DNA of 58,421 nucleotides from a virus (Duplodnaviria; Caudoviricetes), in IMG/VR virus record IMGVR_UViG_3300017963_000308, positions 1 to 58,421 of that record; one strand, written 5' to 3'. The notes beneath the pieces are model-generated. The model saw only the letters and a program-made list of their open reading frames with translations. It searched no databases and was not told where the DNA came from. This document shows, one piece after another, positions 1-13,323 of this stretch. The position numbers were made by a program, and so were the translations under genes. How positions within the stretch are numbered: position 1 is the stretch's first letter; each line of letters begins with the position of its first letter.

Positions 1-3
1 AGA

Positions 4-95
4 TTCTCCTATAGCTAACAATTTGAATAGATTAATTGCTTAACAATCTTCACAAGGCAGGATTATATCTTGTGAAGACTATAAGGAATCAATCC
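4..95 (-). repeat. Family-B intergenic hairpin repeat plus start-associated sequence, copy 1
   Basis: 92 bp identical to 686-777; core inverted repeat TCTTCACAAG-N12-CTTGTGAAGA; ends in TAGCTATAGGAGAA on the minus strand. Confidence 0.95.
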
Positions 96-301
96 AGGAA
101 ACTCGATACAATAATGCTATTGTCTTCTCTATCCCAAAGATAGGTATAATTAAAACGGAATCTCCACGGAGAATATTCCATGGTTTGTCTAATTGCCGCG
201 ATTCTGTTTGGCGGCGAATTATTAAACCCAAACTCCATCGATCTTATTACATCAGCCCACATGGGACATGGGTATAATAATCCCTTATGATAAAAAGCCA
301 T
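89..301 (-). CDS. Small hypothetical protein (array cargo)
   Basis: 70-aa ORF, RBS AGGAG; stop codon lies in the family-B repeat arm. Confidence 0.8.
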   Translation of the reverse strand: MAFYHKGLLYPCPMWADVIRSMEFGFNNSPPNRIAAIRQTMEYSPWRFRFNYTYLWDREDNSIIVSSFLD

Positions 302-332
302 TTTATTTTCTCCTATAACTAACCTGCTTTTA

Positions 333-389
333 ATTAATCGCTCAATAAGATAGACAATGGATCCATTGTCTACCCTATGAAAGATTAAT
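333..389 (-). repeat. Family-A 57-bp hairpin repeat, copy 1
   Basis: ATTAATCGCTCAATAAGA-TAGACAATGGATCCATTGTCTA-CCCTATGAAAGATTAAT; perfect 22-bp palindrome at 351-372. Confidence 0.97.
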
Positions 390-678
390 CGCGCTTAACG
401 GTTTCCCATGCCAGCGTAAACTTCTCGCGCCATGTTTCTGGCACCACTTCAAGATTAAACCTCACGTTTTGACGGTGCTTATTTTTCAATCCTTGCACCA
501 CTGCCACAATAGCCGCATCGAGGCTGAATCCGCTAGCCATTAGCATGCCAACTACCGCGACCACCACGCCGCGCTGATAATCAGCATTCGCTCCGGAATC
601 TGTTTCCAATAATTCGAGAGTATCATGAAAAATATTTTTGTTTTTAATACTCTGATACTTCTTATTTTTCAATTCCAT
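385..678 (-). CDS. Small hypothetical protein (array cargo)
   Basis: 97 aa, AGGAG RBS; stop TAA inside the repeat arm. Confidence 0.85.
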   Translation of the reverse strand: MELKNKKYQSIKNKNIFHDTLELLETDSGANADYQRGVVVAVVGMLMASGFSLDAAIVAVVQGLKNKHRQNVRFNLEVVPETWREKFTLAWETVKRD

Positions 679-685
679 TTTATTT

Positions 686-777
686 TTCTCCTATAGCTAA
701 CAATTTGAATAGATTAATTGCTTAACAATCTTCACAAGGCAGGATTATATCTTGTGAAGACTATAAGGAATCAATCC
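686..777 (-). repeat. Family-B hairpin repeat plus start-associated sequence, copy 2
   Basis: Identical to 4-95. Confidence 0.95.
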
Positions 778-993
778 TTAATAAGTGACTACAATGTTAA
801 GTTCTTTGCCCAAAATAATCATATTCGATATATTTTGAGCTAAGAAAACATGGGGTGATTCATTGCCCACAGAAAACAAACCATTGTCTAATTCTGCAAG
901 AATCCCATAATCGATTCTACTTGTTCTATGCAAGGTAACATTTTCACCCGCATGCTTTTTTAATTCGTTAATAATAATAATATTTTGGTTCAT
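778..993 (-). CDS. Small hypothetical protein (71 aa, MNQNIII...)
   Basis: Start moved to ATG 993 with GGAG RBS, coupled to the stop of 995-1252. Confidence 0.75.
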   Translation of the reverse strand: MNQNIIIINELKKHAGENVTLHRTSRIDYGILAELDNGLFSVGNESPHVFLAQNISNMIILGKELNIVVTY

Positions 994-994
994 T

Positions 995-1252
995 TTATGC
1001 TCCATATAAAGCCAAGATCTTAGCGCATGCGATTCTTTTATCTGTGTCTTCTCTTGTATCCCAATTCCTAAAAGCGGTATAATATCCATTGTCATAGAAA
1101 ACAGAGCAAACCTTGATTCCGTCAATAGTTGCGCAAACATCACCGTAAATAATATAGTCTTCATTGTTTATAGTGAACGAATCCTTACCAGATAAGACAA
1201 CACTCATGGTGTCATCAGCCCAGTTTTCCGGATTGATAGTAACAGTTTGCAT
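995..1252 (-). CDS. Small hypothetical protein (array cargo)
   Basis: 85 aa, acidic, CTATAGGAGAA RBS. Confidence 0.85.
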   Translation of the reverse strand: MQTVTINPENWADDTMSVVLSGKDSFTINNEDYIIYGDVCATIDGIKVCSVFYDNGYYTAFRNWDTREDTDKRIACAKILALYGA

Positions 1253-1283
1253 GGTATTCTCCTATAGTCTAATGGGTTAAAAT

Positions 1284-1330
1284 CTTAATAAATTACTCAA
1301 GATTTTATGGTTTCTTGAGTAATCTATAAA
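1284..1330 (-). repeat. Family-C hairpin (single divergent copy)
   Basis: ATTACTCAAGA-N10-TCTTGAGTAAT with the same TTATAG / TTATTAAG basal motif as families A and B. Confidence 0.8.
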
Positions 1331-1333
1331 ATG

Positions 1334-1627
1334 TCAACCGTAATACCATCCAACTACAACGAAATCATTGTCATCTGTAAAATGCACCAGAATTCCAGAA
1401 AAGAAGGAATCTGACGCATAACCATGCCAGTAGTCGGGAAACATGCCGCTAGGGAATCTCGTAAACTCTCCCAAAGAATAGATATTACCTTTGTACCTAA
1501 AGAATGACATCTCCTCTATTTCTTCGGGAGTCGCCCAGTCAAATTTTTCCTTTTCTTCTTCAGTCAACTCGAAACCGCAGACCACTTCACGCTCATGGTA
1601 ATTGCTAGTGATTTTTAACTCACTCAT
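1334..1627 (-). CDS. Acidic, aromatic-rich phage hypothetical protein
   Basis: 97 aa; FFRYKG..Y and WHGYASDSFFSGILV resemble a family I recall from phage early regions. Confidence 0.85.
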   Translation of the reverse strand: MSELKITSNYHEREVVCGFELTEEEKEKFDWATPEEIEEMSFFRYKGNIYSLGEFTRFPSGMFPDYWHGYASDSFFSGILVHFTDDNDFVVVGWYYG

Positions 1628-1660
1628 TTTAGATTCTCCTATAGCTAATAACTTTTTAAC

Positions 1661-1717
1661 ATTAATCGCTCAATAAGATAGACAATGGATCCATTGTCTA
1701 CCCTATGAAAGATTAAT
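1661..1717 (-). repeat. Family-A hairpin repeat, copy 2
   Basis: Identical to copy 1; 1622-1717 is identical to 2521-2616 (96 bp). Confidence 0.97.
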
Positions 1718-1994
1718 CAGAGCAATAGCCTACTATGCCACGATAATATTCCCATGGGTCAATCTTGTTTTTAACGACATGCCAGCCATGCTCCAAATCG
1801 CGAATATCGCGGCGAGTCAATCGCAAAACATAAACATTGTTTTCGAGGTTGTAGTCTTCAATATAGTGTTCATGTCGTACCATCGCTCCTATGTCCTGAT
1901 ATTTTGCAAGGTGATTCTCTATTTCTTTTTGCATCTTTTTGGACGTGGGTTTAACAGTATATCCACAAAAAACCGGTTCAATAATTACTTGCAT
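1713..1994 (-). CDS. Small hypothetical protein (93 aa, MQVIIEP...)
   Basis: True start at ATG 1994 after TAGCTATAGGAGAA; the longer track ORF reads through a repeat. Confidence 0.85.
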   Translation of the reverse strand: MQVIIEPVFCGYTVKPTSKKMQKEIENHLAKYQDIGAMVRHEHYIEDYNLENNVYVLRLTRRDIRDLEHGWHVVKNKIDPWEYYRGIVGYCSD

Positions 1995-2025
1995 TTTATT
2001 TTCTCCTATAGCTAATCTGCTTTTA

Positions 2026-2082
2026 ATTAATCGCTCAATAAGATAGACAATGGATCCATTGTCTACCCTATGAAAGATTAAT
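2026..2082 (-). repeat. Family-A hairpin repeat, copy 3
   Basis: Identical 57-mer. Confidence 0.97.
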
Positions 2083-2085
2083 TTT

Positions 2086-2526
2086 TTATTCCCAAAGATC
2101 AGAATCCTCAAACGGCCAAAATCCATAGTCTGCCCCATCTCCAGGATGACTCCCGAAGTAACAATCTTCTGGGGCAATTTCATTTAGCATATCGAAGCAC
2201 TCATCTAGTAGCCACGTAGAATCCTCTTCAGAAACATCATGGTAGTACCAAAAATCCCCATGCTCTTCCGGCGACATATCGCGATACAATTTGGTGCCGA
2301 ATACTTGGGTCAACCAATTTTGAGCAAATGGACGAGTCTGCACCACCAGATAATTATGTTCTGTTTGCATCTTAGCGACTCGTTCCGCGTCTTCTCCATC
2401 GATATAACCCAATTCCGCGGCCGCGGTCAGCGCGTCCAAAAAGGATGGTAATAAGTCTTCAGTTTTCATAGTGGCAGTGGATAAACTCGAGCAAACATCA
2501 CTTTGGGGTAATTGCTTAAAACTCAT
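2086..2526 (-). CDS. Acidic phage hypothetical protein
   Basis: 146 aa, D/E-rich; C-terminal YFGSHPGDGADYGFW motif recalled from phage early proteins. Confidence 0.9.
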   Translation of the reverse strand: MSFKQLPQSDVCSSLSTATMKTEDLLPSFLDALTAAAELGYIDGEDAERVAKMQTEHNYLVVQTRPFAQNWLTQVFGTKLYRDMSPEEHGDFWYYHDVSEEDSTWLLDECFDMLNEIAPEDCYFGSHPGDGADYGFWPFEDSDLWE

Positions 2527-2559
2527 TTTAGATTCTCCTATAGCTAATAACTTTTTAAC

Positions 2560-2616
2560 ATTAATCGCTCAATAAGATAGACAATGGATCCATTGTCTAC
2601 CCTATGAAAGATTAAT
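2560..2616 (-). repeat. Family-A hairpin repeat, copy 4
   Basis: Identical 57-mer. Confidence 0.97.
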
Positions 2617-2719
2617 TACCATGCCACCCAAAAATTGCCCATTTGGTTTGTTTCCAGAGGCAATATAGAGAAACAAGAAGCCCGATAGTACCTAATAATT
2701 CTGTATAATTGATATCCAC
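2612..2719 (-). CDS. 35-aa putative membrane peptide (not in ORF track)
   Basis: GGAG RBS, GTG start, MDINYTELLGTIGLLVSLYCLWKQTKWAIFGWHGN; stop in the repeat arm like other cargo. Confidence 0.6.
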   Translation of the reverse strand: MDINYTELLGTIGLLVSLYCLWKQTKWAIFGWHGN

Positions 2720-2722
2720 TTT

Positions 2723-2938
2723 TTATACTCCTATGCTTTGCACCAGATTAATTCTTTTCCTTAAGCTGTTTGGAATTGATAACAAACTATGGTCAATAGT
2801 TAACAAATCGTTGTCATAATCGAATACCAACGCGTTATTAACCTTTTTAAGCAACGTTTCCGCACCTTTTTGTAATCCCTTAATATCATAAGCGATTGGA
2901 CCAAAGATTTCGTTATTCTCAGCATATATCTTAATCAT
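2723..2938 (-). CDS. Small hypothetical protein (array cargo)
   Basis: 71 aa, AAGGA RBS directly after a repeat. Confidence 0.8.
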   Translation of the reverse strand: MIKIYAENNEIFGPIAYDIKGLQKGAETLLKKVNNALVFDYDNDLLTIDHSLLSIPNSLRKRINLVQSIGV

Positions 2939-2958
2939 GGTTTAATTCCTTTTGCTTA

Positions 2959-3015
2959 ATTAATCGCTCAATAAGATAGACAATGGATCCATTGTCTACC
3001 CTATGAAAAATTAAT
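2959..3015 (-). repeat. Family-A hairpin repeat, copy 5
   Basis: 57-mer with one substitution (AAAAATTAAT end). Confidence 0.97.
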
Positions 3016-3233
3016 TAGCGTCGGGTAATATCTGTGACCCCAACATTAATCGAATTCGTGTTATAATCCCAACTTAAAATACTGTTTTGACTGAATTCGA
3101 ATCCAAACGTATCAGAATTGATATACAAATTTTCGTTTTCTAGTACCTTAAGTTTGCCCACGCAATAACCAAATGGGTGATAAATTATAACAGTATACAA
3201 TTCTAAAAAAGCTTGTAGGGTTTCTTGGTTCAT
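3015..3233 (-). CDS. Small hypothetical protein (array cargo)
   Basis: 72 aa, TAGCTATAGGAGA RBS. Confidence 0.8.
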   Translation of the reverse strand: MNQETLQAFLELYTVIIYHPFGYCVGKLKVLENENLYINSDTFGFEFSQNSILSWDYNTNSINVGVTDITRR

Positions 3234-3266
3234 TTTATAATCTCCTATAGCTAATAACTTTTTAAC

Positions 3267-3323
3267 ATTAATCGCTCAATAAGATAGACAATGGATCCAT
3301 TGTCTACCCTATGAAAAATTAAT
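3267..3323 (-). repeat. Family-A hairpin repeat, copy 6
   Basis: Same variant as copy 5. Confidence 0.97.
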
Positions 3324-3339
3324 TACTTGTGCTTCTTTA

Positions 3340-3453
3340 CTACATCCCTAAAAGCGAGAAAACAATAGCAGCATAAGAATCAGCCCAGTTAATTCCAATA
3401 ACCAAAATACCCAATAGGGCAGCAGAAATGCCAAATTTGATTAAGCTTAACAT
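3340..3453 (-). CDS. 37-aa putative membrane peptide, first gene of the array (not in ORF track)
   Basis: ATAGGAGAAA RBS, MLSLIKFGISAALLGILVIGINWADSYAAIVFSLLGM. Confidence 0.65.
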   Translation of the reverse strand: MLSLIKFGISAALLGILVIGINWADSYAAIVFSLLGM

Positions 3454-3488
3454 TTTAGTTTCTCCTATGGTTAATAATTGCGTTTTAT

Positions 3489-3614
3489 TTTTTATGCTCT
3501 ATTGCGCGCGATTACTTGCTTGGGTTTAGGCAAGCTTATATATTAATCCGATTAAGGTATATATTTTTGATGTTTAATCAGCCCATTAATATCGCGCGCA
3601 ACAGAGCACAAAAA
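3489..3614 (-). repeat. 24-bp inverted repeat in the array leader
   Basis: Arms 3489-3512 and 3591-3614; both mismatches become G-U pairs on the minus strand. Confidence 0.8.
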
Positions 3615-4027
3615 TTGTGTCTGTTGTGTTTAGTATTTTATTCCCCAGGGGTCAAACGATTGTTTTCAATCGTGGCTGTTTCACCAGCCGTGAAAAACCT
3701 TCCGTCTAGGATTACTAACAATTCCCAAAAATTCGACTAAAATTTTGGCGGTACCGATTGCCGCGTTCGTGTGAGCAAGGTTACCTATGAGATTTGGGGA
3801 CAAGTCACCCGACCGTTAATGCATTGCCGATTGTCATCACACGTTACAAAAAATCAGCGTAAAATCCAGAAGATTGTTACAAAGGCGGAAGCACAATTGC
3901 CTGGAGTTTTCTGCGAATTAAGGGCAGCTATTGCTGTTTGGATTTCACCCGGCCGGTCAGCCCCGCTTTGTCAGTTTGCCCTACTTGCAAACTCATATTC
4001 AATTCGATGTTACGGTGTTACGTGTAT

Positions 4028-4056
4028 AGAGTATCATATAGTCAAGATGTAGTCAA
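4028..4056 (-). promoter_or_regulatory. Putative leftward sigma70-type promoter for the array
   Basis: TTGACT-17 bp-TACTCT with extended -10 TG on the minus strand. Confidence 0.5.
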
Positions 4057-4477
4057 TACCTTTGTACGAATTAGATAAAATCTCGCTAAAAATAGGCCAA
4101 AATAGGCTATTTTGGAAAGTATTCCGTACAATTATGCAAGTCCAAAATTGCGATTTGACTATTTCGAGTGTTAAGATTGACCTAAAATTGTACCGTAAAT
4201 TGGCCCAAATTAACCCAAAAGCCACCCAAATTACCAAAATTCCGCCCAAAATACGACTAAAAAATAGTCAATACTGGGATAAAATCCAAAAAATCGGTAC
4301 AAATTTAGCCGAATTCACAATAAATTGTGAAATATTAAGCTTGTTTTACTACGCATAATGTATTTTTAGCGAAGTAAAATTTTTAGTCTAGGCTAAATTA
4401 CCAATATATGGGATCGTTGCCAGTAGAATGTCAGTATAAATAAGACATCCCTATGTAGGGTGCCGTACAATTACCCA

Positions 4478-4774
4478 TAGGACGCACTACAATGCGATAT
4501 AAGCGGATTATATGGCAGATAGGGACCATATGTCCTATGGCATATGTCAGCCCGTATAAGCTATTGTGTGGCATATAATGAAGGAACACAGAAAAGCGAG
4601 AAGAAAAGCAGCAGAAATAGAATGAAGATAGATTAAGTGTAAGATAACACGTGGCATAATCTGCCAACATAATCCGGCGGATTGCATCACATTGCAATGA
4701 TGATAACAGACTGGTATTAATCGGTACTTAGGACGCGCTAGGATGTAATCTAAGCGGATTGTATGATAGATAGG
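4478..4774 (+). repeat. Degenerate 46-bp direct repeat pair (4478-4523, 4729-4774)
   Basis: 37/46 identical by manual alignment, core TAAGCGGATT. Confidence 0.7.
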
Positions 4775-4978
4775 TATGATTACATCTGTTTGTTATAATC
4801 TGGCCTACAATGAAGCAGGTAAGATAAAGCGTATAATTCGGTAGACTGTAGGCCAGAAGAAAAGCGGATTAATTAGTATGCTCCATTGTAGGGTACCTAT
4901 GCTATGGATCCATATGATTAACAGTGTGAGGCAGTGTAGTGGATAGAATAGAAATAGAATGAAGATAGATTAAGTGTA
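4613..4978 (+). repeat. Perfect 29-bp direct repeat pair (4613-4641, 4950-4978)
   Basis: AGAAATAGAATGAAGATAGATTAAGTGTA twice. Confidence 0.9.
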
Positions 4979-5303
4979 GTGTAGTGTAGTGCAACATAGT
5001 CAGTATATAGTCAGGTTATAATCGAGTAGTGTATAAATGTATAAGTGAGAATAAAAAGAGTAGTCGAAAAAAAAAGGGGGGGGATCGAAAAAATCGGGCG
5101 GTACTTTGCGTACAGGCTCAACCCCCGCTCTCGTTTCCGCGCCACGCGCATGCGGAGCCGTCCGATCTCCCTGGGGGTCACAAGGAAAAGCAAAGCCCCC
5201 TGCCCTGGGTCGTGGGGGTGAAACGAAGTAGGGGCGTGGGGTCAGCAGCAGTAAGCAGCAGTGGTTTAATGTGGGTGTTTGTGTATATATGTTTGGGTTA
5301 GGG

Positions 5304-5332
5304 TTGACGCTTGTAAAGGTTTATGGTATAGT
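5304..5332 (+). promoter_or_regulatory. Rightward sigma70-type promoter
   Basis: TTGACG-17 bp-TATAGT with extended TG; followed by GC hairpins at 5339-5359 and 5372-5398. Confidence 0.7.
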
Positions 5333-5527
5333 GTTTAAGCGGGTGTTGAGTACGCCTGCGGATAGGGAGCAGGGGGGCGGCTTGGGAAACCGCCCCCCGA
5401 GAAATTACAGGGAGAATTGATTGGTATGATTTGTGGGTAGGGGCATATATTGATACGAAAATGCGAAAGATATATATTTGCCCGTTGCCCACTTTGGTTA
5501 TAGAGATTCGGCTTTAGGGGAAGAGAA

Positions 5528-5752
5528 ATGAGGAAACAACCAGATCCGCAGCTAGTGGAATTTCTTAAAGAGTTTGTTGAAAGGACCGGGGGAAGTTCTT
5601 TCACGCTAATTACTCCCCGCGTTTGTGATCGGTGTGGGGATGACAGTAGGGAAGCTTTTCCCTCATTGTGGGGATTTGAGGGTGACTGGGAAGATCTGTG
5701 CAATGATTGTTTTGAAAAGTTAATGCTGATTGAGGAGTCTGAAGGTGGATGA
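5528..5752 (+). CDS. Small Zn-finger protein
   Basis: CDRC...CNDC motifs. Confidence 0.75.
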   Translation: MRKQPDPQLVEFLKEFVERTGGSSFTLITPRVCDRCGDDSREAFPSLWGFEGDWEDLCNDCFEKLMLIEESEGG

Positions 5753-6230
5753 TTCTGTAAGGCAGGCTATTTATAAATATGAGGCCGAATACTGGCGCGC
5801 TAACGGCAAGATAGCCCGGTTGCGGTATAACCGGGGCTGGTATTGGCTAATACATCCCAATGGGCAGGAAGAAGATCGGGCTTGGCGGTATGGTGAGGTT
5901 AGAACTAGAACAGAAACATTAAAAAATCGTCCTTCATTTGTACTTGGGCGTGGCGTGGATGACAAGGAAGCCCGGGAGATTTACCACAAGCTGCTTGATG
6001 GTACTTATTGGGAAGGAAGGGAACGGGGAGATACGGAGAGGGCTTTTATCAGGGATCTTGAGCAAGTATTGAATCGAATGCCTTCGCAATTATGGCTATT
6101 TGCTACTGGCAACTTGCATGTGATGCGGAAGGATGAAAAGGGGCAAAGGGCTATTACCCAAGAGGGCGGCATGGATCCTGAATACATAGTTGATTCCCTT
6201 ATTGCCGATTGTGATGGGGGTGATTGGTGA
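5745..6230 (+). CDS. Hypothetical protein
   Basis: GAGGAG RBS, GTG start, coupled to neighbours. Confidence 0.75.
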   Translation: MDDSVRQAIYKYEAEYWRANGKIARLRYNRGWYWLIHPNGQEEDRAWRYGEVRTRTETLKNRPSFVLGRGVDDKEAREIYHKLLDGTYWEGRERGDTERAFIRDLEQVLNRMPSQLWLFATGNLHVMRKDEKGQRAITQEGGMDPEYIVDSLIADCDGGDW

Positions 6231-6577
6231 TGACTGATCTGAGAATTATCGATCAGATGCGTTGGGTTATGGCCGAAACTAAGGCTGACGATGTTGATTT
6301 CAAGATGGGTATCGATGGGGTGATAGTTGTAGGGGTTGGTTGGTGTTTTGGTAGTAAAATAGCCAGCTTCCAACGGGCATATACTTTAGAGGCGATTTTG
6401 CGTAATGGGACAGATGATTTTTGGGGGCATTTCGTGAATTTAGCCAAGGAACAACGGAAAATTCTGGTAAATCGGTATTGCTTGAAATGTGGTGAGGAAT
6501 TTAGCGAGATGGGATGGTGCCATTATTGCGACAATCACAGTACCAAACAAAATAAGATGGAAGAGGGGATAGAATGA
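6227..6577 (+). CDS. Hypothetical protein with C-terminal Zn ribbon
   Basis: CLKC...CHYC; GTGA overlap. Confidence 0.75.
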   Translation: MMTDLRIIDQMRWVMAETKADDVDFKMGIDGVIVVGVGWCFGSKIASFQRAYTLEAILRNGTDDFWGHFVNLAKEQRKILVNRYCLKCGEEFSEMGWCHYCDNHSTKQNKMEEGIE

Positions 6578-6816
6578 GCTACGATTTTGATACTTTGGAG
6601 TATAAAGTTTCTGAGATTTCTAAGCATTTTGATAAACTGGAAAAATTGTTGAAGCGCAAAAATACCTACATCAAGGCGTTAAAAGCCAATGCCAGATACT
6701 TCGACGCGATACTGGCAGAGGTAAATCATGGCTACATAGCTGAATTATGTCGGGATGCCTTGAAAGAATTGGCGATGTTGAAACAAGAGTATGAAAAGGA
6801 TGATAATAATGTTTGA
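6574..6816 (+). CDS. Hypothetical coiled-coil protein
   Basis: ATGA overlap, GAGGGG RBS. Confidence 0.75.
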   Translation: MSYDFDTLEYKVSEISKHFDKLEKLLKRKNTYIKALKANARYFDAILAEVNHGYIAELCRDALKELAMLKQEYEKDDNNV

Positions 6817-7408
6817 TCACTATCAGTATCAACAACAGTTTGTAGAAAATCATAAGGAGGGGAATCCCCCCATAAATGACGCGATTGAGTATGGAGTAGC
6901 GATTGAGCCATGTCGTCCGGAAGAGGGCGAGTTCTATTGGAAGATCATTGGGCTTCACCATCTAACACCCGAAGAGAATGTTGGCAAACATAACCTGTTT
7001 ATGGATGTATTGGACGCGGCCGGGGGTCGAGTTGAGCCATTCTTTGAGGTTGATTGGACCTGGGAAGGGCGGCGGCCAGATGAGGCGGCTCCGCCTGTAA
7101 GATTGGACAAACCTCAAAATGAGCCGGGGGGCAATTTGTCTGTCTGGATTAATCAAACTGTTTCGGCTTGGGTTACAGACGACAATGAATGTAGTGATAC
7201 TATTGGCAATGTCCATACTCGCCATGCCGATGAATCTGGGGGGAATACCGTGGGCCACCATAGCTTTTATGTGGTGTGGATGCTGGCAGAAGCGGGTGAA
7301 GAGCCTGATCCCCCATTGCCGCCACTCCCCGAACCATCGGATGATTGTGAAAAGGTGCTGCTCCAGATCAAGGAACTGATTGATGGTTATTTCGAAAACC
7401 AAACTTGA
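6809..7408 (+). CDS. His-rich conserved domain protein, possibly cell-envelope associated
   Basis: YWKIIGLHHLTPEEN..HN, DKP.NEPG.N and H.DE..GNT..HHSFYVVW motifs recalled from Chloroflexota proteins; Pro-rich linker. Confidence 0.6.
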   Translation: MFDHYQYQQQFVENHKEGNPPINDAIEYGVAIEPCRPEEGEFYWKIIGLHHLTPEENVGKHNLFMDVLDAAGGRVEPFFEVDWTWEGRRPDEAAPPVRLDKPQNEPGGNLSVWINQTVSAWVTDDNECSDTIGNVHTRHADESGGNTVGHHSFYVVWMLAEAGEEPDPPLPPLPEPSDDCEKVLLQIKELIDGYFENQT

Positions 7409-7446
7409 CACTCGTTAGGGTTATGATATAATGAGAACGTGTGTTC
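7405..7446 (+). promoter_or_regulatory. Sigma70-type promoter with LexA-type SOS box
   Basis: TTGACA-16 bp-TATAAT (extended TG); GAAC-GTGT-GTTC at 7435-7446 over the predicted start site. Confidence 0.75.
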
Positions 7447-7468
7447 GGTTTTTGCCGAAGGGAGAACC

Positions 7469-7804
7469 ATGGACAAAAAGAAGTTTGTTCCAACTCCAAT
7501 GGAAAAGGGGAGAGCCAGGGTAAACGATTGGGAAGAGCAGTTGTTTTTATATATGTGTGAACAAGAGGACGCTTCCCAGTCTGAAATGGTGAGAAACGCT
7601 ATCCGGCATTATGCCTTAACTTTAGGCTATTTGCCGGATTTGCTTAATGAAAACAGGCGGCTTAGGGAAAATCTTGAAGACGTGCATTGTCGGATAATAG
7701 ATTTGAAGAAAGCGTCGATTAAAGTTGGGCTGTACCAACAATCAAACAGGCTTGCGGAATTAGAGAATATTGTACTGGGTTATTTGAAATATGAGGATGG
7801 GTGA
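7469..7804 (+). CDS. Putative ribbon-helix-helix regulator with coiled coil
   Basis: SQSEMVRNAI helix pattern; GGGAG RBS. Confidence 0.55.
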   Translation: MDKKKFVPTPMEKGRARVNDWEEQLFLYMCEQEDASQSEMVRNAIRHYALTLGYLPDLLNENRRLRENLEDVHCRIIDLKKASIKVGLYQQSNRLAELENIVLGYLKYEDG

Positions 7805-7841
7805 GGATGGAAGGGTGCCCGATAATTAAGGAGAATTTGAG

Positions 7842-8333
7842 ATGATAACCACGAAAGAAGTAGAAAAGTTGGTTACCGAAAAGTGGCGAACCTTCGATAC
7901 CCAAACTCCGCTTTTTTATGAAATTGTTGATTTTGCTCTTGAGATGTACAACCGGGGTCACGAAGATAATCCCCATACCAGGGGCGCGCTTGACTTAACT
8001 TCCCCGGCCAAAAAGGTTGTTTGGCAGCAATCCCAACATCCCATGAATAATCTGGAAGAGGCTGCTTTCTTGGCAATCGCCAAGGTTTTTGGTGATTTGC
8101 TTATGGAAAAGCAGGCGGAGTTTACCCGGCGAACTGCTAACCGCTCCGCAGATGAAATGAGTCTTACCGAAGTTGCCGAACAGCAGGAAAAGGTGATCGA
8201 AACCCTGATGGACTATATTGAAGAGGCTTATCAATTATTGAAAACAATTAAAATCATGGATGACCAATGGCATACATCGGAAAAAGTTTGGATGAGTCGG
8301 GCCGAGTCGTTGCTTTTTGGCGGAGATGAATAG
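7842..8333 (+). CDS. Hypothetical protein
   Basis: AAGGAG RBS, 163 aa. Confidence 0.8.
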   Translation: MITTKEVEKLVTEKWRTFDTQTPLFYEIVDFALEMYNRGHEDNPHTRGALDLTSPAKKVVWQQSQHPMNNLEEAAFLAIAKVFGDLLMEKQAEFTRRTANRSADEMSLTEVAEQQEKVIETLMDYIEEAYQLLKTIKIMDDQWHTSEKVWMSRAESLLFGGDE

Positions 8334-8345
8334 GGGCGATTGGTG

Positions 8346-9326
8346 ATGAAAACAAATTATTATAGTGTAATAATTAGTTCGATCTTGTTTTTTGTTTCGC
8401 TGGCCTTGCTTTTCTTTACAACCGGGTGCGCGGTACCAGAGGGCGATTTTTCTTTCTCAGAGGCACCCACGGCTACGGTAGTGCCTACTCCGATGCCATC
8501 ACGTGAGATAAGCATGCCAGATAGCCAATTGGCGAATCTGTTAAAAGTTGTTGGGTTAGTAGTGGTGGGGTTGATTGCGATGGGGCTAATAGCGGCGGGG
8601 CTGATCGCCGGAGCAAAGTGGATTGCCAAATGGATTGATGGATTATTCGAGAAGCCAGATCTACCGCCAGGAATGGAGCCTAACGCAAAGAAAGTAGAGA
8701 GAGCCACGAAAAGCATTGATCGGGAGTTAAAGCGGGTAGATGCTAATTTAAGAGATATCGAGCGGGAATCGGCGGTATTGTTGGATGGCATTTACGCTTT
8801 ACTTAGCTTCGCGGCCGGGTTGCGGGCATTGTATGACCTGTATGAGCGGGCACTTGAAATAATTTCCGCAGATCCAATTGATGCTCTCGAATTGGCAAAG
8901 ATTCGCGGTCAGTTAAAGCCAAGGGATCCCATCGCGGCGGGCTATTTGGATAGTCCTCACTTGTGGACAAACACATATCGCATTCAAATAGCGGAAAATA
9001 TGGCTGAATTGCTTGGGCAAGCGGTTGAGTGGTCTAGGCAGTATGTGGAACATGCCGCCAAGTTGCAAAGAGTTTTGCACGGCTACAAAACAAGCGCGGA
9101 AAGCCTTCGGTTTAGCAAGAATTACGGAGCCAACGCCAAGCCTGTTTTGGCGATAGGGCAAAAGATAAGCGATGCGTTGACCGCAGTTATGGTGATCCGG
9201 GGATTATTCCCCATTGAGCATCGAAGCGAGCGGCGGTTAGCTGATTTGTTTAGCCGCGAACCGGCTAGACTCGCTCCGGTTTCTAAGGCAACCAGGGAAA
9301 ATATGGAAGTGATATTGGGAGAATAA
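8346..9326 (+). CDS. Membrane/lipoprotein with coiled coil
   Basis: Signal peptide ending in TTGC, PTATVVPTP linker, second TM segment, helical C-terminus. Confidence 0.75.
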   Translation: MKTNYYSVIISSILFFVSLALLFFTTGCAVPEGDFSFSEAPTATVVPTPMPSREISMPDSQLANLLKVVGLVVVGLIAMGLIAAGLIAGAKWIAKWIDGLFEKPDLPPGMEPNAKKVERATKSIDRELKRVDANLRDIERESAVLLDGIYALLSFAAGLRALYDLYERALEIISADPIDALELAKIRGQLKPRDPIAAGYLDSPHLWTNTYRIQIAENMAELLGQAVEWSRQYVEHAAKLQRVLHGYKTSAESLRFSKNYGANAKPVLAIGQKISDALTAVMVIRGLFPIEHRSERRLADLFSREPARLAPVSKATRENMEVILGE

Positions 9327-9327
9327 G

Positions 9328-9546
9328 ATGAAATTTGGGCTAAATTTTTTTGTGATATCTCTGATTTTTATCGTGCTTGCGGTCTTCTTCGAAATTTTAG
9401 CCGCGAAGAGCAATGATGAAAAAATGGAAGCGGCTGAATTGTGGTGTTTCCAGCATGGCTACCCATATGTCAAGGAGACTCAAGATCAGTATTTTTGCTT
9501 TACTCCGGTCGATGTAACGCCGGTACCTGGAGAGATAATACCATGA
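9328..9546 (+). CDS. Small membrane protein
   Basis: N-terminal TM segment and a two-Cys C-terminal motif. Confidence 0.75.
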   Translation: MKFGLNFFVISLIFIVLAVFFEILAAKSNDEKMEAAELWCFQHGYPYVKETQDQYFCFTPVDVTPVPGEIIP

Positions 9547-9770
9547 CCTATGATCAAACATTTAAGTGGATGTCGGTTGGTTTTTGGGCGTTTATCGTGC
9601 TTTTGGCCCTGATTGGTGTTTTTATCCAGTTCAATTATTCCTTTCAGCATTGGCCGCAACTTCAGTCGGCGGAAGAGCAATGCCAGAGGATGAATGAAGC
9701 ATATCATGCTAAGTGGGTCGATGGAGAACTTTATTGTTTGGTGCCTGTAGTATCTCACAAAGGAGAATGA
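9543..9770 (+). CDS. Small membrane protein
   Basis: ATGA overlap; TM plus two Cys, same architecture as the upstream gene. Confidence 0.7.
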   Translation: MTYDQTFKWMSVGFWAFIVLLALIGVFIQFNYSFQHWPQLQSAEEQCQRMNEAYHAKWVDGELYCLVPVVSHKGE

Positions 9771-10147
9771 CTATGTTGATCAATGGTAAAGAGTATGAGG
9801 TTAAGTTTTATCGGGAATTTGTTTACCAGGGGAGAGAAAATAGAAATGGTGATCTCGAATCAACACCCCAAACCGAATGCCAGATATTTACGGATCCCGA
9901 AGGAGCGATTGGTTATGGGGTGACTGTTAAAAATCCCGATGATCCGATTGATGACCGGGATTACGGGCGGCGAGTCGCCTTTAAGCGCGCTCTTGAACAT
10001 GCCGAGTTTGACAGACAAGAGCGCACTCAAGCTTGGGCGTGGTATAACCGGAATTACGAAACTCTTAAGCAGCGTATTAAGCGGCGGGCGTTGATGAGAA
10101 ATTTGCGATCAAGCATATTTTCCACGTATTTCCAGGTGCCCCGATAA
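9767..10147 (+). CDS. Small phage protein
   Basis: G.T..NP.D...GRR.A..RAL motif common in small phage proteins. Confidence 0.75.
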   Translation: MTMLINGKEYEVKFYREFVYQGRENRNGDLESTPQTECQIFTDPEGAIGYGVTVKNPDDPIDDRDYGRRVAFKRALEHAEFDRQERTQAWAWYNRNYETLKQRIKRRALMRNLRSSIFSTYFQVPR

Positions 10148-10186
10148 AATTGTGAAATTAGATAGCAGAACATTACGCGTTGACAG

Positions 10187-11143
10187 ATGGCTAAAGATGC
10201 AAGGGTGGTTTGCCCACATTGTAACCGAATAATTATTTTGGGGATTGAGGTTAGAAAGCCCCGGAGTGGGTTTTTTCGGCAAAAAGGTTCGCCGTCCAAG
10301 CCTAAAATGGGAATCATGCAGATGACCAAGAAAAACATTTTTTCCGATGCGGCGGCCGCGCCACCAATGACGGCCAGAACGCCTACTTATGGAATGTCAT
10401 CGACCGGGCCGACTACCGAAGAGGTTAACGAGAATATACGACAGTTGCCGACTAATTTTAGCGCGTATAGAAGTTCCCTGGATTTGGAACCTACAGTAGC
10501 GAATCAGGTTGGACTTCCCCTGGTTGAAGCGATTGTTTATGGCGGATTTTTCTTTATTGGGGGAGTTGTCGTGGCATGGTTATTCGATATTTTTACGCCA
10601 AGTTACAAAATCTATGTTCTTGAAAAAGTTTCTTTTGGGTTTGTGGTCGGATTTGTGGCGGCCTTTTTTCGGTATATTGGTAACGGGGAGTTCTACAGGG
10701 ATGTTATTCAAAAGGTAGAAGAGGTTACCAAGCGTGATATCAATCAAGATGGGTACGTGGGGCCGCCCCCTCAACCAACCGTTAATGTAACCATTCCGCA
10801 ACCGGGGCCAGGGGTTAGCAGGCAATTGGCCGACTTGCCGGGTGACCTGGATTCGCTTAGGGAATTTAGTCGATATGTTGTCATGGGTGAAATCACCTTT
10901 TCTGAGCAGGGCGCACTTGCTTCTGGCTACGGCCAAAAGAATTTCATGAAACTGCGAAAGATTTTTTTGGATAGGGGTTGGGCCAGATGGAAGAATGAAG
11001 AAGCGCACACAGAGGGAGTCCAATTGCTAAAGGCTGGTAGTTTGATCATCAGGGAGTTATCAAGGTTAAACGATGAGCAAGTAGAATCGGATCCGCCCGA
11101 AGAGGATACTCAATATGGGCGATTTGCTCATATCGATTATTAG
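10187..11143 (+). CDS. Two-TM membrane protein with probable C-terminal winged helix
   Basis: Two hydrophobic segments, DINQDGYVG loop; start uncertain. Confidence 0.7.
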   Translation: MAKDARVVCPHCNRIIILGIEVRKPRSGFFRQKGSPSKPKMGIMQMTKKNIFSDAAAAPPMTARTPTYGMSSTGPTTEEVNENIRQLPTNFSAYRSSLDLEPTVANQVGLPLVEAIVYGGFFFIGGVVVAWLFDIFTPSYKIYVLEKVSFGFVVGFVAAFFRYIGNGEFYRDVIQKVEEVTKRDINQDGYVGPPPQPTVNVTIPQPGPGVSRQLADLPGDLDSLREFSRYVVMGEITFSEQGALASGYGQKNFMKLRKIFLDRGWARWKNEEAHTEGVQLLKAGSLIIRELSRLNDEQVESDPPEEDTQYGRFAHIDY

Positions 11144-11591
11144 GGCTTGTAATGGGGGAAACTTGTTATCAACAATTAAAACTTTCTTTCGTTTTATGTC
11201 TGGCGAAAACCCATATGACGAATTAGTTAAATGGGAATCTGAGCGAAGATTCTGGGATGTAGCTAAATATCAAATTCCCGGATTGATTCCCCAACGTAAG
11301 ATCCGCCCTTATATTGCGGACTTCTCTGTTTGGGCTGACAAGATGCCCCTTGGCCTAATCATTGAGATTCAGGGAAAAAAATACCACGGCGGCGATATGT
11401 CAGAAGAGATTGCCGAAAATTGGTATAAGATTGTAGATGACTGGGAGAGGGCCAGGGAGATCTTGATTAAGGCCGGTTGGGTAGTGGTGTTCTTTCCGGC
11501 CGCGGATTGCTTTTCGCGGCCGCAGTATATGGTTAATCAGGTTAAACAAATGATTAAATCTATGGAAAAGAAAAGGAGAATTCCAAAATGA
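11115..11591 (+). CDS. DUF559/Vsr-like PD-(D/E)xK endonuclease
   Basis: Q..I.PYIADF...LIIEIQG..YH...D..R......GW.V..F. Confidence 0.8.
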   Translation: MGDLLISIIRACNGGNLLSTIKTFFRFMSGENPYDELVKWESERRFWDVAKYQIPGLIPQRKIRPYIADFSVWADKMPLGLIIEIQGKKYHGGDMSEEIAENWYKIVDDWERAREILIKAGWVVVFFPAADCFSRPQYMVNQVKQMIKSMEKKRRIPK

Positions 11592-12706
11592 AATTAATTA
11601 TCAATACTGGCGACTTGAAAGCGGGGCTTGACGTAGTTGGGGCAGCCGTGGCCGGTGCCACTACTATTCCTGTTTTGTCCGGGGTATTGCTGGAAGTTTC
11701 CGAAAATGTATTGAGACTTTCGGCAAGTGATCTGGAAAAAGACATTACTACGCTGCTAAAATGCCAGGGTGAGGATGGGGCGATAGTTTTACCCTATAAG
11801 CTACTTAGTGGTCTGATAGGTGGGCTTAATGGGGCGATTGAAATGAATCTCAATCCATCTAATCTTACCATGAAATGGGAAAGCGGGGAACAGAATGGGT
11901 CTATCAAGGGGCTAGATCCTGGGTTATTTCCGGATGTGACATATGGAGATAGTGACTATGACATCACTTTTGAGGGAGAACAATTAGCCGAAGCGATTGC
12001 TCGGGTCGTTGTATCGAGTGGCGACGATTCTGGACGAGAGTGGCTTGCTTCAGTCAATATGCGATTGAATGATGAGACTGAGGGGAAATTGTTTTTGCAG
12101 GGGGCTAATGGGTTTAAGGCTTCAATTCAGACTATGGCGGCTCCGGGTATGTCGTCGTGTGAAGCAGTAATCCCTGTTCAAAGCATTAGTCGAATTACTC
12201 AACTTGCCTCAAAAAGCAAAAATGTTGGGATCAGGTTTGTCGGCAAAGATGTCATTTTTGTTTTCGATCAGGTTGTTTGGTTGCGTAGTTCAACCCTGGA
12301 AGCAAAGTACCCCGATTTAACTGTTTTTATCCCGGAATCGAGTCTCACATCGATTAGGGTTGATAAGGTAGAATTGCTCCGCAAGCTGAATACGGCTAGA
12401 TTGTTTTGCTCTGAAACCAGTATGGTTGAGGTAAAGGTCGGGGAAGATACGCTATTAATTCAAACGCGATCTGCGGAATTGGGCGACTATTCCGGCGACG
12501 TGCAATGTTCCCTTAAGGGCGATCCAATTTTCTTTGGAGCAAATATCAACTATTTTATTCAGGGGGTAGCCGTTATCCCGGGTGATGAGGTCCTTGTCGA
12601 AGCGAAAGACGCCGATAGCATTATTGCTATGAGGCCGGGAGAAGATGTTGGGTTTATTTTTTGCATGACTCCAATGCATGTTGTGGGGAGTAACCAAAAT
12701 GACTGA
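11588..12706 (+). CDS. dnaN: DNA polymerase III beta subunit (sliding clamp)
   Basis: 372 aa; TIPVLSGVLL, LSASDLE, FPD, YPD and C-terminal MTPM match the beta clamp. Confidence 0.93.
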   Translation: MKLIINTGDLKAGLDVVGAAVAGATTIPVLSGVLLEVSENVLRLSASDLEKDITTLLKCQGEDGAIVLPYKLLSGLIGGLNGAIEMNLNPSNLTMKWESGEQNGSIKGLDPGLFPDVTYGDSDYDITFEGEQLAEAIARVVVSSGDDSGREWLASVNMRLNDETEGKLFLQGANGFKASIQTMAAPGMSSCEAVIPVQSISRITQLASKSKNVGIRFVGKDVIFVFDQVVWLRSSTLEAKYPDLTVFIPESSLTSIRVDKVELLRKLNTARLFCSETSMVEVKVGEDTLLIQTRSAELGDYSGDVQCSLKGDPIFFGANINYFIQGVAVIPGDEVLVEAKDADSIIAMRPGEDVGFIFCMTPMHVVGSNQND

Positions 12707-13118
12707 GCCAGAACATCACGAAATTTGGAAAATGGTAGAAGATGGCTATGAGGGGATATTAAACGAGCTACATCAATTTCGATTTGACATTCCCATTGAA
12801 TGGGTGTCCAGGGATGTACCGATAACGGATGGAGTATCGCTAAATATAGAGGACATTGCGGATCCGGTGAAATTTGCTTCGATTATATTGTCGATTACAA
12901 GCATCCTGCACCATCAGCAAGTATTGATTTTCAGTTTTGACCTTGCTCTTGAGCATAGGCCAGATCCAGTATCCGATGACCCTCTTCGGAGAAAAAGAGT
13001 ATTGAATATAGGGCTTGGGTGTATCGGGTCTTGGAATAAAATAACCGTGACATCGTATCTGGGGATGAACAGAAGCCGAATGTCACTAGACGATCCGGGA
13101 GAGTTAGGCGATGAATGA
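12699..13118 (+). CDS. Hypothetical protein
   Basis: GGGGAG RBS, overlaps dnaN stop. Confidence 0.7.
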   Translation: MTEPEHHEIWKMVEDGYEGILNELHQFRFDIPIEWVSRDVPITDGVSLNIEDIADPVKFASIILSITSILHHQQVLIFSFDLALEHRPDPVSDDPLRRKRVLNIGLGCIGSWNKITVTSYLGMNRSRMSLDDPGELGDE

Positions 13119-13323
13119 CGATGAGTTGAGGCGTAGATTGAAAGAGAATGATGCCAAACTAAAACGGGAGAGGGCTATGTCTGGAGTACAATTTGCGGTT
13201 ATCTTTTTTATCCTGATGCTTATTGCCCAAATTGGTATGGAGTCTCTGACTCCCGTGGGTTGTGTTTTCGGGATTGGGTTTTTTTGGTCTTTGGGCTATG
13301 CTTTGATAGAGTTTTTTACATAA
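13111..13323 (+). CDS. Small two-TM membrane protein
   Basis: Two hydrophobic segments. Confidence 0.7.
   Translation: MNDDELRRRLKENDAKLKRERAMSGVQFAVIFFILMLIAQIGMESLTPVGCVFGIGFFWSLGYALIEFFT

Follow-up and report, generated by a model that had tools for sequence, protein, structure and literature searches.

The DNA analysed here, referred to as the window, is a 58,421-nt stretch from an uncultivated tailed phage (record IMGVR_UViG_3300017963_000308) that carries a tape-measure gene and is unrelated to the phages in GenBank. At its left end (positions 1-3453) small genes are separated by near-identical palindromic repeats. The question this locus raises is whether the repeats act as DNA, marking the borders of exchangeable gene cassettes, or as RNA in the transcript that runs across them. 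The original prediction had proposed a cassette platform in which the repeats control expression and let genes be gained, lost or shuffled. Eleven small ORFs were found in this region, with nine elements between them (six of type A, two of type B and one of type C) and a twelfth ORF beyond the edge. The array does run off the left edge, since a ribosome-binding site (RBS) lies at 5-18 with no start codon ahead of the edge. BLASTP among the 11 ORFs returned no mutual similarity at E ≤ 0.01, in agreement with the claim that they are unrelated. In a correction to the earlier reading, genes and elements were placed on the minus strand. The features are listed below in the direction of transcription; G001 is a complete 83 kb relative whose TerL is 58% identical to that of the window phage, and L166 is the third of the related phages.

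3454..3650, minus strand: leader of the array, preceding g1, in which inverted repeat I17 (24 nt, 92% complementary) gives a long-range stem with arms 3489-3512 and 3591-3614
3340..3453, minus strand: g1, ORF for a hydrophobic peptide of 37 aa, 65% identical to k1 of L166; no match in Pfam or PHROG
3234..3339, minus strand: A element copy 1, with hairpin 3267-3323, linker type 1 and RBS box; 83.3 bits on the sense strand
3015..3233, minus strand: g2, 72 aa, no homologue in the relatives
2939..3014, minus strand: A element copy 2, hairpin 2959-3015; -29.5 kcal/mol, z -6.99
2723..2938, minus strand: g3, 71 aa, conserved array gene, 45% identical to h1 of G001 and 67% to k2 of L166
2612..2719, minus strand: g4, 35 aa, GTG start, directly after g3 with no intervening element
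2527..2611, minus strand: A element copy 3, hairpin 2560-2616; 84.7 bits
2086..2526, minus strand: g5, 146 aa, acidic, conserved array gene, 38% identical to h5 of G001 and 47% to k4 of L166; matches PHROG 29605 (function unknown)
1995..2085, minus strand: A element copy 4, hairpin 2026-2082, linker type 2; -29.6 kcal/mol, 87.6 bits
1713..1994, minus strand: g6, 93 aa, no homologue in the relatives
1628..1712, minus strand: A element copy 5, hairpin 1661-1717, linker type 1; -28.7 kcal/mol sense versus -17.7 antisense
1334..1627, minus strand: g7, 97 aa, matches PHROG 1845 (function unknown, E 2.6e-6)
1253..1333, minus strand: C element, hairpin 1275-1339 and RBS box; inverted repeat I20, -25.4 versus -19.0 kcal/mol, 67.3 bits
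995..1252, minus strand: g8, ORF of 85 aa
778..993, minus strand: g9, 71 aa, start at 993 inferred from the GGAG spacing; no element between g8 and g9
679..777, minus strand: B element copy 2, hairpin 711-777 and RBS box; D3 repeat, -27.0 versus -19.7 kcal/mol, 73 bits
385..678, minus strand: g10, ORF of 97 aa
302..384, minus strand: A element copy 6, hairpin 333-389, linker type 2; 84.2 bits
89..301, minus strand: g11, ORF of 70 aa
1..88, minus strand: B element copy 1, hairpin 29-95, RBS box at 5-18; D3 repeat, 71.4 bits, next gene beyond the left edge

The number and position of the repeats were as first described. The 22-bp palindrome occurred six times (at 351, 1679, 2044, 2578, 2977 and 3285) and was never recovered from shuffled sequence. 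A 57-nt core was common to six 96-nt copies; the segments 1622-1717 and 2521-2616 (D1 repeat) proved 100% identical over 96 bp, the maximum that had been claimed, and the two 92-nt B copies (4-95 and 686-777) were also 100% identical. The six A cores varied at one position only and had ATTAAT at both ends (ATTAATC...GATTAAT); the conserved box of the A copies is TTATTGAGC. The stop codons at 89, 385, 1713 and 2612 lay inside elements, as had been noted, and the linkers between hairpin and RBS were mosaics of types 1 and 2, which agrees with their description as interchangeable. The RBS box TATAGGAGA was present in eight of the nine elements, the predicted single exception being the copy between g2 and g3, where g3's own RBS comes next. 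Searched on the plus strand as TCTCCTATAGCTAA with up to two mismatches, the box appeared nine times in the window, where 0.31 occurrences would be expected, and eight of these lay inside the array. Two parts of the earlier description had to be changed: the palindrome is real, but it is merely the tip of an imperfect hairpin of 57-67 nt; and A, B and C, taken to be separate families, are homologous, diverged variants of one structured element. A covariance model of this element run over the 58 kb window found the nine array copies and nothing else.

The sense-strand RNA of A, B and C folded with the same topology. From the base upward, the hairpin has a lower stem of 6-9 bp, a 1×1 mismatch, a middle stem of 4-6 bp, a bulged U in the 3′ arm, an upper stem of 13-14 bp and, at the tip, a loop that varies, which amounts to 25-29 imperfectly paired bp with conserved G·U pairs. 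The stop codon of the upstream gene usually falls within the lower stem, and downstream a short linker separates the hairpin from a standard Shine-Dalgarno box. Folding energies were -25.4 to -29.6 kcal/mol (z -3.5 to -7.0), compared to -17.7 to -19.7 kcal/mol for the antisense RNA. Among the nine window copies 95.7% of the cells were paired, with changes on both sides in 11 of 26 pairs (slid controls, 25-49%). In a set of 17 copies from four phages the value was 94.2% (slid controls, 26-52%) and compensatory changes were seen in 14 of the 26 pairs (72 such cells), a score that none of 500 shuffles reached. Certain sequence blocks were conserved as well, namely YUYAUAG/UURU-URAG, with an almost invariant G·U pair (columns 20/53, in 15 of the 17 copies), the bulged U, and CAAG/CUUG below the loop (CAA/UUG in 15-17 of the 17). 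No Rfam family was matched at its gathering threshold (the best, RF03084, scored 22.9 bits where 41.2 is required, E 0.81), and a search of the relatives returned generic hairpin matches only. The hairpin is a well-supported structured RNA motif without an Rfam family.

The two strands were not equivalent in this respect. In the 17-copy set 407 of 432 cells were paired in the sense orientation (67 of them G·U) and 343 of 432 in the antisense; sense pairing was the better in all 17 copies, and the covariance model scored the sense strand at 67-88 bits and the antisense at 30-53. With DNA parameters the strands folded alike (-9.6 to -11.8 versus -8.1 to -12.4 kcal/mol), and the minimum-energy fold of the B element differed from the full helix. 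Since the conserved pairing is sense-specific and G·U-dependent, it points to RNA. This bears on the proposal that the elements serve as DNA sites for structure-specific recombination (attC-like or HUH-type), which would make the array a true site-specific cassette platform on which a recombinase of the host, or one that escaped recognition, acts. Like an integron attC array, the locus has promoterless units in a single orientation, an imperfect hairpin at the 3′ end of ORFs and a changing gene content. The hairpin contains a mismatch, an extrahelical base and stop codons, cargo turns over at its boundaries, and contigs from public sequencing runs part from the window sequence at element edges. 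The copies are moreover homogenised within each genome, as are the attC sites of chromosomal integrons. Sense RNA is nevertheless the favoured fold, and each unit carries its own RBS box, unlike integron cassettes. No tyrosine recombinase (PF00589; controls matched in 14 of 14 genomes), serine recombinase (Resolvase) or Y1 transposase (Y1_Tnp, HUH-type) was found in the window, for which none had been predicted, or in the complete G001, nor was any present among the 25 listed of the 49 Pfam families in G001. attC sites have conserved inverse-core and core motifs at their two ends; these motifs were missing from all six A copies, and a GTTRRRY-like word was seen only in some B and G001 copies, within the middle stem. 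A DNA-site function is therefore very doubtful. As a candidate class, the integron attC array is not supported, with no IntI-type integrase, no core motifs in the A copies and RNA-type pairing on the sense strand.

The covariance model also recovered the element in the relatives. In G001 it found eight sense copies at E ≤ 0.15 and a weaker one (E 2.4), all in a homologous minus-strand array, and in L166 three of four hairpin copies were near-identical. Copies are homogenised within a genome and differ between genomes, with compensatory changes. The same motif was present in two AT-rich phage records (G002 and G003, both 55% complete) that show no homologue of g3 or g5. Near-identity of the copies in each genome, each with its own homogeneous version, and the ATTAAT flanking both ends of the A core would fit a small selfish palindromic element of the MITE, REP or Correia kind that spread through the intergenic spaces of the array and whose effects on RNA, if any, are secondary. 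We regard this as very unlikely: all 24 copies were sense-oriented (nine in the window, eight in G001, five in L166/L223 and two in G002/G003), compensatory change has preserved the structure across phages with 58% TerL identity, there were no copies elsewhere in the 58 kb or the 83 kb, and no transposase was found.

A scan for σ70 consensus promoters flagged none of the nine window elements, and no promoter for the array was found within the window; in L166, none of the four elements had a σ70-like promoter on the sense strand. Near-consensus promoters were located ∼0.5 kb upstream of the arrays of G001 and L166. Because there are no internal promoter matches in the array elements and the relatives have promoters upstream, a single transcript is inferred. 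The window elements did not match an intrinsic terminator (a GC-rich stem followed by a run of U): none of the nine was flagged by the terminator scan, and their G+C content is 24-34%.

The elements might still stop transcription in part, as leaky intrinsic terminators or attenuators, and so grade expression from gene to gene, in the role of the PeSL stem-loop minus its promoter. The PeSLs of T4-type phages combine a strong σ70 promoter with a GC-rich terminator stem-loop (Arbiol et al. 2010; Comeau et al. 2014). Like the elements described here, they are repeated modules that fill the intergenic space between the stop codon of one gene and the Shine-Dalgarno sequence of the next. Both kinds of module cluster in hyperplastic regions ahead of ORFans and mark the limits of indels that separate relatives, and for both recombination between copies has been proposed. 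Attenuation would agree with the position immediately after stop codons, with the U-rich 3′ flank of the upper stem (UUAUUGAG or UUGUUAAG) and with the termination demonstrated for PeSL stem-loops. Two of the eight G001 copies were flagged as terminator-like and one copy had a near-consensus promoter after it, so that some copies may act as attenuators, like PeSLs. As the general role of the element this seems quite unlikely, however. The window elements match neither half of the PeSL, their 25-29 bp stems are AU-rich without a U run, and covariation extends into the lower stem, beyond the U-rich stretch; nine serial terminators without intervening promoters would also silence the distal genes.

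We favour, at a probability of about 0.55 and on sequence grounds, the reading that the elements are intercistronic RNA processing or stabiliser sites of the RNase III type in a polycistronic early operon, with cassette turnover by homologous recombination between the repeats as a side effect, as for PeSLs. The array would be the promoter-proximal portion of a leftward, probably early, operon with one structured RNA module after most genes. Within the transcript the hairpin would act as a site of double-strand-specific processing, with host RNase III as the simplest candidate enzyme, and/or as a 3′-end stabiliser and translational insulator, so providing each gene with a uniform expression context, as in the early mRNAs of T7 and SP82. 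A host enzyme must be assumed, because neither the window nor G001 encodes RNase III. A review of RNase III gives 22 bp as the ideal helix, associates loops and bulges with single-strand cleavage, and states that 3′ hairpins stabilise RNA. The hairpins of A, B and C sit between cistrons, and all have the 25-29 bp helix, the 1×1 mismatch and the bulged U, in keeping with this description. The T7 and SP82 signals, too, are imperfect hairpins placed between cistrons: they comprise two or more helical turns interrupted by a loop or bulge, recur among the small early genes and are mutually similar within a genome, and the 3′ hairpin left after the cut would likewise stabilise the upstream mRNA. Of the three analogues originally offered, the T7 RNase III sites fit best. 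There are differences: the elements have no sequence or Rfam relation to the T7/SP82 signals, they number at least nine in 3.4 kb (the review gives five signals in the ∼7 kb T7 early precursor), they are near-identical to one another and continue into a standard RBS box, cleavage is predicted here, and the window phage, tape-measure-bearing and tailed, has no T7-type RNA polymerase (nor does G001). The element would then be a known kind of punctuation in a new form.

The conserved sequence blocks exceed what RNase III is usually said to need, and a dedicated protein could account for them. The hairpin would then be bound or cut by a protein of the phage's own, either an RNA-binding protein or an endoribonuclease (with Csy4-like or RegB-like logic, or a translational repressor), instead of being a substrate of the host enzyme. 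The 20/53 G·U pair, the bulged U and CAA/UUG are kept beyond the needs of pairing, and two array genes, g3 and g5, are conserved throughout the three related phages. We nonetheless consider this unlikely. Domain searches of g1-g11 (Pfam and PHROG) revealed no RNA-binding or nuclease domain, and the hairpin is missing from all of the 79 other phage loci that were scanned and encode g5-like proteins. That G002 and G003 bear the motif without g3 or g5 is weak evidence in the same direction, these records being 55% complete.

With regard to gene content, G001 has homologues of just two of the 11 array genes, g3 and g5. In L166 the order g1-g3-g5 is kept, with other genes in between, each bounded by a hairpin, so that a backbone g1-g3-g5(-h7) is retained among relatives and the genes between hairpins differ. 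G001 is a distant relative, and different cargo in its array is therefore not special by itself; in another early region of the window (5029-13323) just two of 16 ORFs have G001 homologues. Since identical cargo and order in all relatives were not seen, gain and loss are real as a pattern. What stands of the cassette platform is a hypervariable array with repeats at its gene boundaries and turnover of cargo; an integron-like mechanism driven by a recombinase is not supported. Under the preferred processing-site reading, the repeat copies would double as substrates for homologous recombination, a role for which their near-identity within a genome suits them, and recombination among them, the simplest mechanism for the turnover, would account for genes being gained, lost and replaced between copies. 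It is very unlikely that hairpin and RBS instead form a dedicated plug-and-play cassette interface, in which accessory genes are actively captured and exchanged by structure-specific means without an integron integrase and the hairpin also punctuates the mRNA. The agent would in that case be a host factor or an unrecognised phage factor, for instance the product of the conserved g3 or g5.

The motif is new to Rfam and occurs in a group of uncultivated tailed phages and as a single copy in an unrelated AT-rich phage. It indicates that one phage lineage supplies its accessory genes with a uniform 5′ and 3′ context. Synthetic biologists place insulators between cistrons; if the processing or stabiliser reading is true, these hairpins are natural inter-cistron insulators and could be reused as such. 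By marking points of gene entry and exit, the repeats provide a concrete and testable connection of regulatory punctuation with modular evolution in phages other than the T4 group. Were the cassette interface real, it would be a phage counterpart of the integron built around a site with a dual use in RNA and DNA.

The last of the original analogues, the start-associated sequence (SAS) of cluster K mycobacteriophages, is a 13-bp box (GGGATAGGAGCCC) 3-7 bp ahead of start codons, and departures in the arms of its extended form (ESAS) lend no support to an RNA hairpin (Pope et al. 2011). As in the array, a conserved asymmetric box with a Shine-Dalgarno sequence lies a few bases before the starts of non-structural genes, often preceded by an inverted repeat, and the downstream genes are unrelated. 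The box of the window phage (TAGCTATAGGAGA, 5-8 nt before ATG) differs in sequence and host group, and covariation in its hairpin is strong. This box is shared with G001 and L166 only in its GGAG core. The array leader, too, is conserved in both relatives, where the sequences of its stem differ yet stay complementary.

The hairpins lying between the small genes of the leftward array had been assigned to three families (A, six copies; B, two; C, one). All the counts of the original prediction were borne out when palindromes, repeats and boxes were recomputed: the 22-bp palindrome is present in six exact copies (shuffled sequences had none), the 96-nt repeats number six, with 1622-1717 and 2521-2616 identical, B consists of two identical 92-nt copies and C of one hairpin, and the ribosome-binding box is found eight times within the array. 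In the direction of reading, the order of genes (g1 to g11) and hairpins is as follows.

Order of the array (window 1-3453, minus strand)
leader, g1, A, g2, A, g3·g4, A, g5, A, g6, A, g7, C, g8·g9, B, g10, A, g11, B, edge

The division into separate families did not hold. An end-to-end alignment of A, B and C has 27 invariant columns, and the three adopt the same fold as sense RNA; they form a single element. The lower stem has 6-9 bp and usually contains the stop codon of the upstream gene; above it come a 1 × 1 mismatch, a middle stem of 4-6 bp, a bulge of one U on the 3′ side, an upper stem of 13-14 bp and a loop of 4-12 nt. The sense strand had computed fold energies of -25.4 to -29.6 kcal/mol, the antisense -17.7 to -19.7 kcal/mol. 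Among the nine window copies, 95.7% of the cells are paired and both sides have changed in 11 of the 26 pairs, while sliding the partner by 1-3 columns brought pairing down to 25-49%. A covariance model built from these copies hit just these nine places in the window, scoring 67-88 bits in the sense and 30-53 bits in the antisense orientation. With 17 copies from four phages, 94.2% of the cells were paired and 14 of the 26 pairs were compensatory (72 cells); none of 500 shuffles reached as high a value, and slid partners gave 26-52%. Rfam returned nothing at threshold for either the window element or its relatives, and word searches of the literature, which are blind to sequence, found no published account of the hairpin.

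Several properties bear on whether the hairpin acts as RNA or as DNA. G·U pairs occupy 67 of the 432 cells in the 17 copies; since these become A·C mismatches on the opposite strand, pairing there drops to 343 of 432, and the sense strand pairs better than the antisense in all 17 copies. One G·U pair is conserved in 15 of them. Under DNA energy parameters the two strands were about equal, and the full helix was not the best fold for B. Finally, each of the 24 copies seen is sense-oriented. This G·U-dependent strand bias, its absence under DNA parameters and the sense-only orientation point to a function in the transcript.

Further copies were sought in IMG/VR with a structure-derived pattern made from the invariant columns, followed by confirmation with the model. 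The pattern matched 24 loci, of which four, from three records, were confirmed. The same pattern matched 102 stretches in GTDB genomes; the model scan of the 80 listed confirmed two, L166 and L223, which belong to one metagenome-assembled genome and carry five copies. As negative controls, 78 pattern matches were scanned and rejected by the model, and 79 phage loci (695 kb) with a g5-like gene were scanned as well. No hairpin appeared in these 79 new loci (80 were listed of 88 stretches, the remaining one being L135, a locus of G001 scanned earlier). The exact palindrome had no match in IMG/VR. A 14-mer covering the ribosome-binding site gave at least 115 IMG/VR stretches with a single match each, which were taken as chance, as was the one contig (L120) found in JGI metagenomes with a 20-mer of the palindrome, a single copy amid coding sequence unlike that of the window and with no flanking element.

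The most informative relative, G001, is 83,420 bp long, with terminal repeats and a completeness rating of 100%; it shares 58% terminase identity with the window, and the structural genes are syntenic. The model found eight sense copies in it at E ≤ 0.15 plus a weaker one (E 2.4), all within 4.4 kb of its own leftward array of small genes (locus L152), with none elsewhere. Two AT-rich, near-identical phage or provirus records, G002 and G003, hold one copy each (L146 and L147, about 1501-1566), starting where an 81-aa gene has its stop codon; neither contains a match to the window's terminase. L166 and L223 are phage-like contigs of 2.7 and 6.1 kb, binned in a genome labelled Candidatus Altiarchaeales, but given their small size, a promoter of bacterial type (TTGACA-17-TATGAT) and GGAG Shine-Dalgarno sites, this binning seems doubtful.

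That the array gains and loses cargo had been proposed from the window alone, and comparison with L166 and G001 agrees with it: backbone genes occur in a constant order, with different genes between these anchors.

Gene order in three arrays (H, hairpin element; k and h, genes of L166 and G001)
window: leader, g1, A, g2, A, g3·g4, A, g5, A, g6 ...
L166: leader, k1 (=g1)·k2 (=g3), H, k3 (new), H, k4 (=g5), H, k5 (=G001 h7), H, k6
G001: h1 (=g3), ..., h2, H, h3, H, h4, H, h5 (=g5), other hairpin, h6, H, h7, H, ...

Every variable gene in the three is accompanied by a hairpin. The homologues of g1 and g3 are direct neighbours in L166; in the window g2 has an A copy on both sides, the second of which lacks the standard ribosome-binding box and adjoins g3's own ribosome-binding site. 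Of the window's 11 array genes, just two (g3 and g5) have homologues in G001, a distant phage in which the window's other early region is equally poorly conserved (2 of 16 ORFs with homologues). Copies of the element are near-identical inside one genome and diverged between genomes, indicating that they spread or were converted within each genome.

Public sequencing runs X1 and X2 yielded contigs of the same lengths and nearly the same depths and letters, and were counted as one data set; X3 and X4 contained no window sequence, and no RNA run was among those listed for the stretch. The X1/X2 contigs end at repeats. Depth was ∼5-7 for the array contigs versus 12.3 for 3287-6878, i.e. about half, and the array contigs showed up to 10 differences in 497 bases (1-2% divergence), whereas 3287-6878 was identical. 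Among the pieces listed, four of the six loose contig ends (782, 1047, 2009, 2074, 2115 and 2953) fall inside an element or within 5 nt of one, and the joints were 777→1 and a weak 2096→2933, with 21 letters on one side. These data suggest, short of proof, variant junctions or further copies of the array, and are compatible with variant arrays in the population. The contrast in depth and divergence between the array and 3287-6878 may mean that one population contains two array variants. G001 and L166, assembled independently, both show this architecture, so that an assembly artefact is unlikely.

In their placement, their extent from stop codon to Shine-Dalgarno site and their role in insertions and deletions, the elements resemble the PeSL cassettes of T4-type phages. 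PeSLs, however, are defined by a sigma-70 promoter plus a terminator stem-loop, and scans for sigma-70 promoters and terminators called none of the nine window elements. The TTGAGC box was considered as a promoter and discarded, there being no -10-like word at constant spacing across the variants. Were the hairpins terminators, at least nine would stand in series without promoters between them and the distal genes would be silenced; our reading is therefore of a single operon in which the hairpins are signals between cistrons. In G001 and L166, the first array gene does have a near-consensus sigma-70 promoter (11 of 12 positions, with TG) ∼0.5 kb upstream, and a leader preceding that gene is conserved in three phages.

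Promoters and leaders upstream of the arrays
L152 12040-12011, minus strand: sigma-70 promoter, 11/12 positions
L166 330-358: sigma-70 promoter, 11/12 positions
window 3489-3614: leader with long-range stem
L152 11537-11720: leader with long-range stem
L166 700-875: leader with long-range stem

The window yielded no counterpart in the sigma-70 scan. About as far upstream of g1, the minus strand of 4021-4060 has TTGACT, then 12 nt, then TATGAT. The arms of the leader stem differ in sequence among the phages with complementarity kept, and contain G·U pairs on the sense strand; the stem may be another double-stranded RNA target. L152 6924-6952 and 6969-7037 comprise a decayed hairpin copy together with a near-consensus promoter directly after it, ahead of h12; this is the only PeSL-like junction of hairpin and promoter seen.

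The start-associated sequences of cluster K mycobacteriophages (SAS/ESAS) are similar in having a start-associated box and an upstream inverted repeat, but their authors found RNA pairing of that repeat to be without support, while support for pairing is strong here. An integron-like system is not supported: in the proposed search for a nearby recombinase or HUH nuclease, neither the window nor the complete G001 gave a tyrosine recombinase, serine recombinase or Y1 transposase (nor do such enzymes appear among the 25 Pfam families listed, out of 49, for the 110 ORFs of G001), the A copies lack the attC core motifs, and it is as sense RNA that the fold is favoured. The closest known systems in presumed working are the RNase III sites of phages T7 and SP82. 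In length, mismatch and bulge the hairpins match the substrates described in a review on RNase III, according to which single-strand cuts leave RNA-stabilizing 3′ hairpins and the T7 early precursor has five RNase III signals; SP82 early mRNA is a further cited case. Cleavage at the present hairpins is putative, and would need a host enzyme since neither the window nor G001 encodes RNase III. No T7-type polymerase was matched in either, the family profile being equally silent in control genomes. The element is real and well supported; the description that fits it best is that of a new structured RNA module between cistrons, with cassette-like behaviour in evolution as a side effect.

As originally stated, the 11 array proteins show no similarity among each other. 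None has a Pfam domain above threshold, and two match PHROGs of unknown function. One, g5 (2086-2526), is acidic, ends in YFG.HPG[DN]G.D.GFW and matches PHROG 29605 (function unknown). The back-translated pattern of this C-terminal motif was found in 88 IMG/VR stretches, and g5 appears to be a widespread phage protein; an alignment search for relatives with g5 returned only G001.

The window comprises an entire IMG/VR contig (58,421 bp, linear, completeness estimated at ∼70%) of a tailed phage, with genes for the large terminase (14382-16214), portal, major head protein (38907-39980), tape measure protein (42990-46205) and sliding clamp. Megablast of window 1-6000 against GenBank phages gave no matches, and tblastn with the terminase gave 40 records there, all below 60% identity and each with query coverage short of 80%; the terminase alone had no match in IMG/VR, and an alignment search with it returned just G001 and a single locus, the latter at 24% identity. 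From 5.7 kb on, every long gene reads rightward, and segment 1-3453 leftward; G+C is 36-38% in the latter versus 40-53% beyond 5 kb, and GC skew switches sign near 4 kb. Between the two lie ∼2.2 kb (3454-5700) with short ORFs only, a change of GC-skew sign and repeat families D5, D7, D10, D11, D14, D16 and D17, probably a divergent control region or origin. The glycan-modification gene set of the window phage and G001 is unusually rich, with a large glycosyltransferase gene in the window (32540-34963) and, in G001, matches to GT1 (three), GT2 (three), sulfotransferases and one TylF-type methyltransferase.
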